Shown: positions 26,001 through 31,255 of the stretch, one piece after another | Position numbering within the stretch: the first letter of the stretch is position 1 | Layout of the letters: the number at the start of each line of letters is the position of its first letter | Source: a phage | Sequence record: PZ862964.1 | DNA length: 64,000 nt | Strand: one strand, 5' to 3' | The notes under the pieces: model-generated | The model's database searches: none | What the model was told of the DNA's origin: nothing | What the model saw: the letters and a program-made list of their open reading frames with translations, nothing else | Program-made: the position numbers and the translations under genes

Positions 26001-27512
26001 TTATAAATTAACTGTTTTCATTACGTAATTGAATTTTTCATCTGCGTAGCGCTGAATACGATCAATGCCGTGTTTTAAAAGATAGTTCAAATGAACATAT
26101 TTCTTTTTCGTATTAGCAGATTTTGGCTTAACACCACAATCATCTATGAGGTCCCAGACTGTTGCTATTGTCTTAGAACCATGCTTACGTAATACACGAC
26201 CGATTGTTTGTAATACAATGATTTTTGATTTAACACCGTGCGCTAAAACAACGTGATGCAGATTTTTAACTGAAATACCAGTAGAAAATACGCCATAACT
26301 CGCTACTATAATTATTCCTTTACCATTTTCAGCTAAGGTTTTCATTATATTGCGGGTTTCGGTATCAACTTCCCCTGATACGTAATAAACTTTATCATAT
26401 TCATTTTTAATTAAATCGAAAATAGCTTTACCATGCGATACATGTTTAAACATGACAAAAGCGTTTTCATCTTTTTGCGCAAGCTTAATAGCTAATTTAG
26501 CGATCCATTTATTTCTTTTACTGAGCCCAGTAATAATTTTTATTTCTTCTTGGTAAGTTTTTCCCTTTAATTTAGTAGTGAACTCATCGGGATAGCGAAG
26601 AAAAATACTATTAATTTTTAGCTCAGTTACTTGTCCATCTTCCATTAATTTAGAAGTCGTTACTGGTTTAAATATTTCACCAAACATTCCAACATACTGC
26701 ATGATATTGGCTTTGCCATCACGTAATGAACCTGATAGACCAAATTTAAACATGCAGTTATTTAAACCTGATATGATAGATGAAATACTTTTTCCTGTAG
26801 CAAGATGGCATTCATCATTCATCATCATTCCAAACTGTGAGAACCATTCTTTTGGTTGTTTTACTACAGTTTGCCATGTACCAACAACGACTGGTGCATC
26901 ATTTTTATATTTATCATCTTTTGATGCTCCGCCACCAATTTTCTTTATCATTGCATGACTGAATAAACGATAGTCAACAAAGTCATCAGCCATCTGAGTT
27001 GTTAGAGCAGTTGTTGGAACAATGATAAGAATTTTACCTTCATAATTTTCCAAATAATATCGCGCAAGCAAAGCTTGAATTAAAGATTTACCTGCAGATG
27101 TTGGAAGATTAAGAATTCTACGACGATTAACTAATCCTTCGAACACTGCATCTTTTTGATACCAGTGCGGTTCAATTCTTTTATTTCCTGAATAGATTTC
27201 TAATTTAGAAAGCCATTCATCAAAATCTTTTCTTGATAATTCTTCTTTTTCGTTAATTTGTGGATCAATCCAGGCTTTATAGCCAAAATTATCACAGAAC
27301 TTTTTAATTTGCCCGACTAAGCCGAATGGAAGAAGACGATTATAATCTAAAAGACGGATTCGTCCATCCCAGTGGCCATATTTGTATTTCGGATTAAAAC
27401 GATACCCATCAGCTTCAAAGCTAAAGAAATCACGGAGTTCATGAAATGTACTTTCTTCACAATCAATTCTCACGTGACTAAAATCATAAAAATGTACTTT
27501 AATGTCAGTCAT
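26001..27512 (-). CDS. uvsW: UvsW RNA-DNA / DNA helicase (SF2)
   Basis: 503 aa; helicase motifs (NLPTSAGKS Walker A, DECH box MMNDECHLATG); matches T4 UvsW length. Confidence 0.9.
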   Translation of the reverse strand: MTDIKVHFYDFSHVRIDCEESTFHELRDFFSFEADGYRFNPKYKYGHWDGRIRLLDYNRLLPFGLVGQIKKFCDNFGYKAWIDPQINEKEELSRKDFDEWLSKLEIYSGNKRIEPHWYQKDAVFEGLVNRRRILNLPTSAGKSLIQALLARYYLENYEGKILIIVPTTALTTQMADDFVDYRLFSHAMIKKIGGGASKDDKYKNDAPVVVGTWQTVVKQPKEWFSQFGMMMNDECHLATGKSISSIISGLNNCMFKFGLSGSLRDGKANIMQYVGMFGEIFKPVTTSKLMEDGQVTELKINSIFLRYPDEFTTKLKGKTYQEEIKIITGLSKRNKWIAKLAIKLAQKDENAFVMFKHVSHGKAIFDLIKNEYDKVYYVSGEVDTETRNIMKTLAENGKGIIIVASYGVFSTGISVKNLHHVVLAHGVKSKIIVLQTIGRVLRKHGSKTIATVWDLIDDCGVKPKSANTKKKYVHLNYLLKHGIDRIQRYADEKFNYVMKTVNL

Positions 27513-27541: not shown

Positions 27542-27549
27542 TATTTATA
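27542..27549 (-). promoter_or_regulatory. Candidate late promoter for uvsW
   Basis: tatttata on + (tataaata on - strand) 30 nt upstream of uvsW ATG (27512). Confidence 0.4.
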
Positions 27550-27562
27550 CTGAGGAAATATT

Positions 27563-28243
27563 ATGATAGATAAAGATTATATTGCAGAGCTGAAGGCTCT
27601 TGATGATAATAAAGAAGCTAAAGCTAAATTAGCTGAATATGCTGAACAGTTTGGTATAAAGGTCAAAAAGAATAAATCTTTTGATAATATCGTTGTTGAT
27701 ATTGAAGAAGCCCTCCAGAAGCTCGCTAGTGAACCTATGCCGGAGACTGATGGGTTATCTATTAAAGACTTAATTGATGCTGCTGATGCTGCAGAGGGGT
27801 TAAAATATGACGATGAAGAAGTCAATCCAGAAGCAGCACTTCTGATTGATTCTCCGGTTAAATCTGACATTAAAATTGAAGTAGTAGAAACGGATAAAAT
27901 TCCTGAAAATACCGATGTTTTGATTGAAGATACTCCTTTTGTTGAAGAAAAATTTGAACAGGCTGTAGCTGAGATTATTGAATCTGAAAAGCCGTCTGTA
28001 TTTACTCTTCCAGAAAACTTTAGTCCGAATCTTCAACTGATTGGAAAAAATCCAGGATTCTGTACTGTTCCTTGGTGGATTTATCAATGGATTGCTGAAA
28101 CTCCGGATTGGAAATCTCATCCAACAAGTTTTGAGCATGCGTCAGCACACCAAACTTTATTTAGCTTAATTTATTACATTAATCGTGATGGATCAGTTTT
28201 AATTCGTGAAACACGCAATTCTTCTTTCGTAACATTAAAATAA
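27563..28243 (+). CDS. inh: Inh, inhibitor of prohead protease
   Basis: 226 aa, matching T4 Inh length; position between uvsW and hoc. Confidence 0.8.
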   Translation: MIDKDYIAELKALDDNKEAKAKLAEYAEQFGIKVKKNKSFDNIVVDIEEALQKLASEPMPETDGLSIKDLIDAADAAEGLKYDDEEVNPEAALLIDSPVKSDIKIEVVETDKIPENTDVLIEDTPFVEEKFEQAVAEIIESEKPSVFTLPENFSPNLQLIGKNPGFCTVPWWIYQWIAETPDWKSHPTSFEHASAHQTLFSLIYYINRDGSVLIRETRNSSFVTLK

Positions 28244-28252
28244 GGATAACTT

Positions 28253-29671
28253 ATGGCTTTTACAGTTGATATAACTCCTAAAACACCGACAGGGGTTATT
28301 GATGAAACTAAGCAGTTTACTGCTACACCCAGTGGTGAAACTGGAGGCGGAACTATTACATATGCTTGGACTGTAGATGATGCTCCACAAGATGGAGCTG
28401 AAGCAACTTTTGATTATGTATTAAAAGGACCTGCTGGACAAAAGACTATTAAAGTAGTTGCAACAAATACAGTTCCAGAAGCTGAAGCTGAAACAGCAGA
28501 AGCTTCTACAACTATCACAGTTCAAAATAAGACACAAACGACTACCTTAGCTGTAACTCCTAATAGCCCTGACACTGGAGTAATCGGAACATCTATTGAA
28601 TTTACTGCCGCTTTAGCTTCGCAGCCATCGGGCGCAAACGCTACTTATCAATGGTATGTAGATGATTCTCCTGTTGGAGAAGCAACTTCTGCTACATTCA
28701 ATTACACTCCTGCCGAAAGCGGGGTAAAAAGAATTAAGTGTGTGGCTCAAGTAACCGCAACAGATTATGATGCACTAAGCGTTACTTCTAATGAAGTGTC
28801 ACTGACTGTTAATAAAAAGACACAGACAACTACTTTGGCAGTAACTCCCGATAGTCCTTCAGCTGGAGTAATTGGAACCCCAGTTCAATTTACTGCTGCC
28901 TTAGCTTCTCAACCAGTTGGAGCGTCTGCTACGTATCAGTGGTATGTAGATGATTCACAGGTTGGTGGAGAAACTAACTCTACATTTAGCTATACTCCAA
29001 CTACAAGTGGAGTAAAAAGAATTAAATGCGTAGCCCAAGTAACCGCGACAGATTATGATGCAAAGGAAGTTACTTCGAATGAAGTATCATTAACGGTTAA
29101 TAAGAAGACAATGAATCCACAGGTTACATTGACTCCTCCTTCTATTAACGTGCAGCAAGATGCTTTGGCTACATTTACTGCTAATGTCACTGATGCTCCA
29201 GAGGAAGCACAAATCGAATACTCATGGAAGAAAGATTCTTCTCCAGTAGAAGGGTCAACTAATGTATACACTGTTGATACATCATCTATTGGAAGTCAAA
29301 CTATTGAAGTTACTGCAACTGTTACTGCTACTGATTATGATAGCAAAACTATCACAGCAGAAGGTCAAGTTCAGGTAACTGATAAAGTTGCTCCAGAACC
29401 AGAAGGTGAATTGCCTTATGTTCATCCTCTTCCACATCGCACTTCAGCTTACATCTGGTGCGGTTGGTGGGTTATGGATGAAATCCAAAAAATGACCGAA
29501 GAAGGTAAAGATTGGAAAACTGACGATCCAGATAGTAAATACTACCTGCATCGTTACACTCTTCAGAAGATGATGAAAGACTATCCAGAAGTTGATGTCC
29601 AAGAATCGCGTAATGGATACATCATTCATAAAACTGCTTTAGAAACTGGTATCATCTATACCTATCCATAA
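28253..29671 (+). CDS. hoc: Hoc, highly immunogenic outer capsid protein, with one extra Ig-like domain
   Basis: 472 aa; MAFTVDITPKTPTGVIDETKQFTATPSG... and C-terminal capsid-binding region (YVHPLPHRTSAYIWCGWWVMDEIQK...) match T4 Hoc as recalled, but T4 Hoc is 376 aa. Confidence 0.88.
   Translation: MAFTVDITPKTPTGVIDETKQFTATPSGETGGGTITYAWTVDDAPQDGAEATFDYVLKGPAGQKTIKVVATNTVPEAEAETAEASTTITVQNKTQTTTLAVTPNSPDTGVIGTSIEFTAALASQPSGANATYQWYVDDSPVGEATSATFNYTPAESGVKRIKCVAQVTATDYDALSVTSNEVSLTVNKKTQTTTLAVTPDSPSAGVIGTPVQFTAALASQPVGASATYQWYVDDSQVGGETNSTFSYTPTTSGVKRIKCVAQVTATDYDAKEVTSNEVSLTVNKKTMNPQVTLTPPSINVQQDALATFTANVTDAPEEAQIEYSWKKDSSPVEGSTNVYTVDTSSIGSQTIEVTATVTATDYDSKTITAEGQVQVTDKVAPEPEGELPYVHPLPHRTSAYIWCGWWVMDEIQKMTEEGKDWKTDDPDSKYYLHRYTLQKMMKDYPEVDVQESRNGYIIHKTALETGIIYTYP
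28526..29098 (+). repeat. Tandem in-frame duplication of an Ig-like domain within hoc (2 x ~95-96 codons)
   Basis: Protein residues 92-186 and 187-282 are ~85% identical (NKTQTTTLAVTP...VKRIKCVAQVTATDYDA..VTSNEVSLTV repeated). Confidence 0.85.
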
Positions 29672-29675
29672 TCAT

Positions 29676-29700
29676 AAGGGGCTTCGGCCCCTTTCTTCAT
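29676..29700 (+). terminator. Rho-independent terminator after hoc
   Basis: aaggggc-ttcg-gcccctt hairpin followed by tcttcattttt. Confidence 0.75.
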
Positions 29701-29760
29701 TTTTAAAGCACGCAAAACACAATCAGAAAATGATGTATATAATGGCACCAACTCGATAAC

Positions 29761-29976
29761 ATGAGATTGATTATGAGAACTGAGGTTGTGGTGTTTACTC
29801 TTCATGAGTCTGGAAAGTCATTCATTGAAATTGCTCGTGAATTAAACTTACAGGCAAAAGAAGTGGCTGTATTATGGGCTCGAGCTATGACTGCTAAGAA
29901 TAAATTTGAAACTCGAGAAAAAGTTGTCTATAGAAAAAGACATATTAATAAAAAGGTGAAAAATGGAACAGTATGA
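29761..29976 (+). CDS. Small HTH-like protein (T4 24.3 position)
   Basis: 71-aa ORF; helix-turn-helix-like stretch SFIEIARELNLQAKEV; alternative start ATG 29773. Confidence 0.5.
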   Translation: MRLIMRTEVVVFTLHESGKSFIEIARELNLQAKEVAVLWARAMTAKNKFETREKVVYRKRHINKKVKNGTV

Positions 29977-30250: not shown

Positions 30251-31255
30251 ATGTTTAAAAAGTATAGCAGTCTTGAAAATCATTACAACTCTAAATTTAT
30301 TGAAAAACTTTATAGCTTGGGATTGACTGGTGGGGAGTGGGTAGCTCGTGAAAAGATTCACGGCACAAATTTCTCATTGATTATTGAGCGTGATAAAGTA
30401 ACTTGCGCTAAACGTACTGGTCCTATTCTTCCTGCTGAAGATTTCTTTGGGTATGAAATTATTTTAAAGAATTACGCTGATTCCATTAAAGCAGTACAAG
30501 ATATTATGGAAACCTCAGCGGTTGTATCTTATCAAGTCTTTGGCGAATTCGCTGGACCTGGCATTCAGAAGAATGTCGATTATGGTGATAAAGATTTTTA
30601 TGTATTTGACATTATTGTCACTACAGAAAGTGGCGATGTGACTTATGTCGACGATTATATGATGGAATCATTCTGCAATACATTTAAATTTAAAATGGCT
30701 CCACTTTTAGGTCGCGGTAAATTTGAAGAGCTTATTAAATTGCCAAATGATTTAGATTCTGTCGTCCAAGATTATAATTTTACAGTAGACCATGCTGGAT
30801 TAGTTGATGCAAATAAATGCGTTTGGAATGCCGAAGCAAAAGGCGAAGTATTTACCGCTGAAGGATATGTATTGAAACCTTGTTATCCTTCTTGGCTGCC
30901 TAATCGCAATCGTGTAGCGATTAAATGCAAGAATTCCAAATTTAGTGAAAAGAAAAAGTCTGATAAGCCTATTAAAGCTAAAGTTGAACTATCAGAAGCT
31001 GATAACAAATTGGTGGGAATTTTAGCTTGTTACGTTACACTGAACCGGGTAAATAACGTTATTTCTAAAATTGGCGAAATTGGTCCAAAGGATTTTGGAA
31101 AGGTGATGGGGCTAACTGTTCAAGATATTTTGGAAGAAACTTCTCGTGAAGGTATTATTCTAACTCAAGCGGATAATCCTTCTTTGATTAAGAAGGAATT
31201 AGTTAAAATGGTACAAGATGTACTTCGTCCGGCTTGGATTGAATTGGTAAGTTAA
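30251..31255 (+). CDS. rnlB: RNA ligase 2 (gp24.1)
   Basis: 334 aa; [43 protein letters not shown]... with ligase motif I lysine (KIHGTN) matches T4 Rnl2 as recalled. Confidence 0.95.

Follow-up and report, generated by a model that had tools for sequence, protein, structure and literature searches.

The window analysed here, a stretch of 64,000 nucleotides of phage DNA (record PZ862964.1), contains a gene for Hoc, the highly immunogenic outer capsid protein, in a form with four Ig-like domains (Table 1). In a phmmer search, its product matched T4 Hoc (PDB 5vf3_Z) with an E-value of 1.9e-220, as well as four further T4 Hoc entries of the PDB. A megablast search with the gene retrieved 657 phage records, in which the match goes under the name of Hoc, head outer capsid protein or PKD domain protein. 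The position of the gene is also that of hoc, between inh and 24.3 and near uvsW and rnlB. The order inh, hoc, 24.3 (DUF2774), 24.2, RNA ligase is the same as in annotated relatives, the genes around hoc are those that flank it in T4, and inh is likewise the annotated upstream neighbour of hoc in T4, moskry, AR1, KarlGJung, ime09 and others.

Table 1. Genes, protein domains and other features at the hoc locus, in window coordinates
Feature	Position	Strand	Basis and remarks
uvsW-like helicase ORF	26001-27512	-	On the far side of inh
inh, prohead protease inhibitor	27563-28243	+	ORF; ends 9 nt before hoc
hoc, four-Ig-domain form	28253-29671	+	472 aa plus stop; ORF, phmmer
Ig-like domain 1 (aa 1-91)	28253-28525	+	All-beta AlphaFold2 model, pLDDT ~87-94; aligns to T4 Hoc residues 1-91
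Ig-like domain 2, first module copy, type 1 (aa 92-186)	28526-28810	+	Repeat copy; without a full T4 counterpart
Ig-like domain 3, second module copy, type 2 (aa 187-282)	28811-29098	+	Repeat copy; best match to T4 Hoc domain 2
Ig-like domain 4 (aa 283-376)	29099-29380	+	Equivalent to T4 Hoc domain 3; aligns to T4 residues 187-280
C-terminal capsid-binding domain (aa 377-472)	29381-29668	+	T4 residues 281-376 with one or two substitutions
Intrinsic-terminator-like GC-rich hairpin AAGGGGCTTCGGCCCCTT and T run	29676-29703	+	Directly past the hoc stop codon
DUF2774 protein (gene 24.3)	29761-29976		Downstream of hoc
92-aa ORF			Between the DUF2774 and RNA ligase-like ORFs; position as 24.2
RNA ligase-like ORF	30251-31255		Downstream of hoc

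The hairpin that follows hoc corresponds in position to a putative terminator annotated in T4 (X14869). No perfect T4 late-promoter motif (TATAAATA) was found on the plus strand just upstream of inh or hoc. The motif does occur on the minus strand at 27542-27549, about 30 nt upstream of the start of the uvsW-like ORF (27512), and it is enriched in the window (20 matches vs 9 expected). Two minus-strand ORFs of 72 and 61 aa lie within hoc; nothing pointed to a gene hidden on that strand.

Over 20 kb, the nearest genomes were those of the Tequatrovirus phages ZCEC14, Sf22 and RB3, with about 97.5% identity to the window. The hoc gene is more diverged than its flanks and its similarity does not follow the relatedness of the genomes. 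Among these close genomes, ZCEC14 has a four-Ig hoc that is just 93% identical to that of the window, and Sf22 a three-Ig hoc, encoding a 376-aa Hoc, while alleles about 95% identical to the window's are found in records classified as Mosigvirus (moskry, mar005p1). This discordance between the gene and its flanks, together with the near-matches in Mosigvirus, suggests that hoc alleles may have been exchanged between phage lineages.

Repeat and domain organization of Hoc

A repeat search identified two in-register tandem copies of 288 nt in hoc, at 28517-28804 and 28805-29092, with 75% DNA identity; Tandem Repeats Finder reported the same repeat at 28529-29110 (period 288, 2.0 copies, 77% matches, score 689). 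The repeat preserves the reading frame, and its 72 mismatches over 288 nt are distributed 16/11/45 over codon positions 1, 2 and 3. At the protein level, 76 of the 96 residues are identical between the two units (79%; 81% by local alignment), and the remaining pairs of Ig domains within the protein are 28-40% identical. An earlier note on this DNA had thus been right in placing a tandem duplication inside hoc at 28526-29098 and in describing it as two copies of one domain, but its figures of ~85% identity and ~285 bp have to be replaced by 75% (DNA) or 79-81% (protein) and by a period of 288 nt. The modules begin at residues 94 and 190, as they do in RB30, moskry, KarlGJung, ime09 and AR1, and they stand in the order of the four-Ig (RB30-type) form, a type-1 module being followed by a type-2 module.

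Pfam recognized a PKD domain in domain 3 (residues 195-253, E = 8.3e-10, 39 bits vs a cut-off of 23.5). Domain 2 gave weak PKD_4, BiPBP_C and V-set matches, mostly under the curated cut-offs, and domain 4 weak Ig_3 and I-set matches, together with an all-beta model of high pLDDT; all Ig_2, Ig_3, I-set and V-set matches in the window Hoc were below cut-off. An AlphaFold2 model built on 22 aligned four-Ig Hoc sequences showed a string of four all-beta domains, with pLDDT mostly at 85-95 over residues 1-376, followed by a poorly modelled C-terminal domain (pLDDT 28-61). When this model was compared with the PDB using Foldseek, the best matches were four-Ig fragments of Sidekick-2, Dscam1 and ICAM-5, as well as a bacterial ice adhesin (E ~1e-13). 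From the all-beta models, the Foldseek matches and Pfam, we took each repeat unit as one Ig-like domain.

In the HMMER alignment, T4 residues 1-106 pair with window residues 1-106 and T4 residues 93-376 with window residues 189-472, so that exactly one repeat period is left unpaired; D342 of the window corresponds to T4 D246 by the resulting offset of 96 residues. With one complete Ig-like domain per repeat unit, the window Hoc has four Ig-like domains and a capsid-binding domain where T4 Hoc has three and a capsid-binding domain. This bears out the statement that the 472-aa protein carries one more Ig-like module than T4 Hoc (376 aa; gene of 1131 bp, X14869). The C-terminal domain is the counterpart of the conserved capsid-binding domain of T4 Hoc (residues 281-376; PMC10385173) and its orthologues differ little (dN 0.009). 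In T4, one Hoc molecule sits at the centre of each gp23 hexamer and the protein is non-essential for infectivity (PMC10385173); the same source gives 155 fibres of ~180 A on the capsid.

Module number in related Hoc proteins

The Hoc of RB30 (AY101183, AAM52483, 472 aa) has the same length, the same domain order and the repeat at the same place as the window protein; the two genes show 91.5% DNA identity (~8% of nucleotides differ), and the difference is only allelic. The GenBank entry of 2002 for RB30 hoc (AY101183) already carries, at the corresponding place, the annotation 'intragenic repeat led to appearance of additional immunoglobulin-like domain', and a repeat_region is also marked there in the moskry record (MN850651). 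Our literature search found no paper describing the RB30 hoc repeat. The RB30 depositors counted the C-terminal domain as one more Ig-like domain, the fifth, a view not borne out by subsequent structural studies (PMC10385173). T4 Hoc (PDB 5VF3, 8T1X, 8T9R) has closely similar orthologues of domain 1, of the last Ig domain and of the capsid-binding domain of the window protein, but it has a single 96-residue module, a mosaic of types 1 and 2, instead of two.

Other relatives extend this series in both directions. The Hoc proteins of the Tequatrovirus phages UGKSEcP1 and UGKSEcP2 (568 and 570 aa) and of slur14 (664 aa) contain the same module between the same flanking domains, but in three or four copies (four in slur14) vs two in the window, which makes them five- and six-Ig proteins. 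Lengths of 376, 472, 568 and 664 aa thus correspond to one, two, three and four copies. The short Hoc of PhiPNJ-9, described as being without domain 3 (PMC11853027), and that of AV113 (283 aa) keep domain 1, one module and the anchor, and have two Ig-like domains vs four in the window; it is a different Ig domain that is missing from the 283-aa form. In AV113 (OR352943), the end of the module (…SLTVN) is joined straight to the anchor (DKVAQEPEGE…), a clean loss of the last Ig domain. That T4-like phages vary in how many domains their Hoc has, and in how these are arranged, has been described before (PMC11150434, PMC10385173), with homologues spanning one to ten Ig-like domains (PMC10385173).

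A similar length polymorphism was found in Klebsiella phage Marfa (MN044033, 471 aa) and its relatives, where a four-Ig Hoc also occurs beside three-Ig forms. These proteins are ~48-50% identical to the window protein, however, and the duplicated pair is made up of the last two Ig units (75 of 94 residues identical in Marfa). The Marfa duplication looks like a separate one, at another position of the fibre and in another lineage. In another four-Ig Hoc (L008), the last two Ig units are identical at 54 of 93 positions. In related phages of Klebsiella and Enterobacter, Hoc has three or two Ig domains, and most relatives of Marfa have shorter genes.

We estimated the prevalence of the four-Ig form in a sample evenly spaced through the whole megablast list, taking the first 52 rows, which had full query coverage, and counting spans by hand. 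The 1419-bp form (~1419-1425 bp) accounted for 22 of these 52 full-length genes (~42%) and the T4-like 1131-bp form (~1117-1134 bp) for the other 30. Among the best 120 clusters of a search in 5.8 billion proteins, 82 had 376-377 aa, 30 had 468-472 aa and 8 had 568-570 aa, corresponding to one, two and three modules, as counted by fuzzy match to TQTTTLAVTP. Four of the 472-aa clusters (P0009, P0010, P0013 and P0018) contained 58-167 member sequences each. The extra domain is absent from T4, which has one copy, but not from its relatives, both copies being present in RB30 and in ~42% of the sample. The four-Ig 472-aa Hoc is already known, common and ancient, and is not peculiar to the window phage.

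Some records contain broken hoc genes. Early reports described T2 capsids without Hoc, which would fit a broken T2 hoc. In the record 'Escherichia phage T2 escape mutant' (PV648364), hoc is frameshifted into three annotated ORFs, with no single open frame, and is a remnant of the one-module type. The four-Ig hoc genes of ZCEC14 (OP168898, 1418 bp) and PST (KF208315, 1420 bp) are also frameshifted and split, and in ZCEC14 the pieces and their neighbours bear unrelated names (endolysin, deoxynucleoside kinase). Errors of sequencing or annotation, rather than true pseudogenes, are the probable explanation of the split genes in ZCEC14 and PST.

Divergence of the two modules

For the analysis of the modules, DNA was taken from GenBank phage records and dN/dS was calculated by the Nei-Gojobori method; a scan of IMG/VR for hoc gave 21 loci, few of them close relatives. 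Comparison of module 1 with module 2 of the window yielded a dN of 0.136 and a dS of 1.20 (dN/dS ~0.11), and the mean dS of the within-gene module pairs in seven two-module genes was 1.03. The mean dS between orthologous modules was lower, 0.48 for the first and 0.34 for the second, and that of the flanking domains was 0.27 (domain 1) and 0.18 (C-terminal domain).

When a neighbour-joining tree was built from the DNA of 26 modules of 16 genes, type 1 was separated from type 2 with a bootstrap of 197/200. The type-1 clade comprised all first modules of two-module genes and the single modules of F1, AV113, teqdroes and one IMG/VR contig, while the type-2 clade comprised all second modules and the single modules of T4, KMB38 and two IMG/VR contigs. 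Strictly diagnostic residues between the types were found at four positions, all in the core of the module, too few to map chimeras. Because the dS within genes exceeds that between orthologues and the types separate in the tree, we read the two copies as old paralogues, each under purifying selection, and not as the outcome of a fresh duplication.

Direction of the change in module number

The first 338 nt of T4 hoc differ from those of RB30 at six positions (~98% identity), the first 58 nt of RB30 module 1 being free of mismatches, and from nt 339 onwards T4 hoc tracks module 2 of RB30. We scored the single module of T4 at the 68 sites that separate the two RB30 modules. It agreed with module 1 at 8 of 8 sites between module nt 3 and 51, with module 2 at 39 of 43 sites between nt 60 and 216, and again with module 1 at 12 of 14 sites between nt 225 and 258. 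The string of T4 sites contained 14 runs vs ~31 expected under random interleaving of its 23 and 43 symbols (z ~-4.6; hand calculation). Such a pattern is that of recombination tracts and does not agree with descent from an undivided ancestor.

The modules of RB30 differ from each other by 24%, whereas T4 and RB30 differ by ~2% in the adjoining DNA. This argues that the two-module array is older than the split between T4 and RB30, and if so, the mosaic single module of T4 is best read as a contraction. All six one-module genes could be fitted by a single switch from the first- to the second-module register, with 91-94% identity. The best single breakpoints differed among them (module nt ~40-59, 105-139, 174-270 and 285-291), which suggests more than one independent event.

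When 83 single-module proteins were classified coarsely by log-odds in three segments, the majority fell into a '2-1-1' class, which is not what a simple collapse by one crossover predicts. At the DNA level, the 'type-2' head proved to be a third haplotype, common to the first module of RB30, T4 and F1. The head segment being weakly informative for this reason, the protein classification was set aside as an indicator of polarity. The history of the modules is more mosaic than one event would make it.

T4 is probably the contracted form, then, and the window not the expanded one, and it is this derived state of the three-Ig Hoc of T4 that is mildly new. Taking the observations together, we lean towards a Tequatrovirus ancestor that had two modules, the paralogues being far older than the sampled phages; the one-module genes, including that of T4, would be repeated products of unequal crossing-over, and the three- and four-module genes the reciprocal products.

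The converse reading, in which a one-module, T4-like gene is ancestral, would make the window the gain: unequal recombination during a mixed infection would have brought two old module alleles together, and mosaic single modules would be ordinary allelic recombinants. Single modules of either core type do exist, T-even phages recombine freely, hoc alleles ~95% identical to the window's occur in records of another genus, Mosigvirus (moskry), and the depositors of RB30 themselves called the repeat a gain. This reading requires, however, that alleles persisted at a dS of ~1.2 while domain 1 and the C-terminal domain have mean dS values of 0.27 and 0.18. It also has to account for the fact that six out of six one-module genes switch from the first to the second register, the direction expected of a deletion, and that T4 stays 98% identical to RB30 across domain 1 and the first 58 nt of module 1 and then switches. 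We consider an ancestral one-module gene rather unlikely, yet still the most serious competitor of a contraction in T4.

Recombination between the modules

The longest exact in-register run shared by the two copies of the window is 17 nt, and windows of 36 nt are 67-86% identical. With such a short run and an overall identity of 75%, the copies would make a poor substrate for homologous recombination, so that heterogeneity of copy number within a stock is not expected and frequent change there is unlikely. The earlier note had proposed that copy number may vary in the population; this is true between phages, which have one to four modules, but the 17-nt run speaks against it within one stock. 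Between phages, both the series of copy numbers and the existence of chimeric modules support a change of module number by recombination.

The same figures bear on the proposal that the repeat arose by a recent tandem duplication in this phage or its close kin and is unstable within the stock. The units follow directly upon each other, keep the frame and are both 288 nt long, and copy number does vary between related phages, as a recent event would have it. But copies that had just been duplicated would not be only 75% identical, with a dS of ~1.2 and no exact run longer than 17 nt; each copy is nearer to its orthologue elsewhere than to its neighbour (197/200 bootstraps), and the same architecture was recorded for RB30 in 2002 and occurs in ~42% of the sampled records. 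A recent duplication is thus very improbable. A falsely doubled segment has a negligible likelihood, since, prone as repeats are to mis-assembly and frameshifted as some public hoc records are (ZCEC14, 1418 bp; PST, 1420 bp), one site in four differs between the copies (72 of 288), mostly at third codon positions and with the frame intact, and the 1419-bp architecture and its 472-aa protein recur in many independently sequenced genomes and in metagenomic contigs.

We therefore hold with good confidence that the window carries a common four-Ig, Tequatrovirus-type hoc allele with old, paralogous modules of variable copy number, of which T4 most likely has a contracted version. The protein consists of four Ig/PKD-like beta-sandwich domains followed by a conserved C-terminal domain, predicted to anchor it at the centre of the capsid hexamer. 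Domains 2 and 3 are old paralogues of one 96-residue module, both retained by purifying selection, and the module is a cassette present in one to four copies in this phage group. Copy number would change through unequal recombination between modules, within one genome or between co-infecting phages, leaving chimeric modules behind, and the three-Ig Hoc of T4 most likely arose when a two-module gene contracted in this way.

Fibre length and mucin binding

Hoc serves as a display platform and has been implicated in the adherence of phages to mucus and in the retention of therapeutic phages in the gut. From its domain number, the fibre of the window phage is likely to be about one Ig domain longer than that of T4, that is, by about a quarter. 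In PhiPNJ-6 Hoc, residues E29 and G33 have been reported to bind MUC2 (PMC11150434), and in PhiPNJ-9 Hoc, S183, L184 and T185 of domain 2 were reported as the site that binds MUC2 fucose (PMC11853027). Domain 1 of the window protein carries both E29 and G33, and the SLT motif, with which the module ends, is found at residues 183-185 and again, in the second copy, at 279-281. By analogy, the module that the window fibre has in duplicate, reported elsewhere to bind fucosylated mucin, may provide it with an extra mucin-binding surface. The isolated domain 2 of PhiPNJ-6 did not pull down MUC2 (PMC11150434), so mucin binding by the repeated module is not general and a gain in valency would be hypothetical.

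As a discovery, the extra domain carries little weight, having been annotated in RB30 in 2002, and its practical value is modest. It does matter when results obtained with T4 Hoc are generalized, as about four in ten of the sampled T4-type phages carry the longer, four-Ig fibre and T4 may itself be a shortened form. Natural Hoc variants with two to six Ig domains are ready material for relating fibre length or module valency to mucin binding. If T4 Hoc is indeed the product of a contraction, the number of modules would not reflect a one-off gain but a repeatedly re-tuned dial for the length and valency of the capsid fibre.
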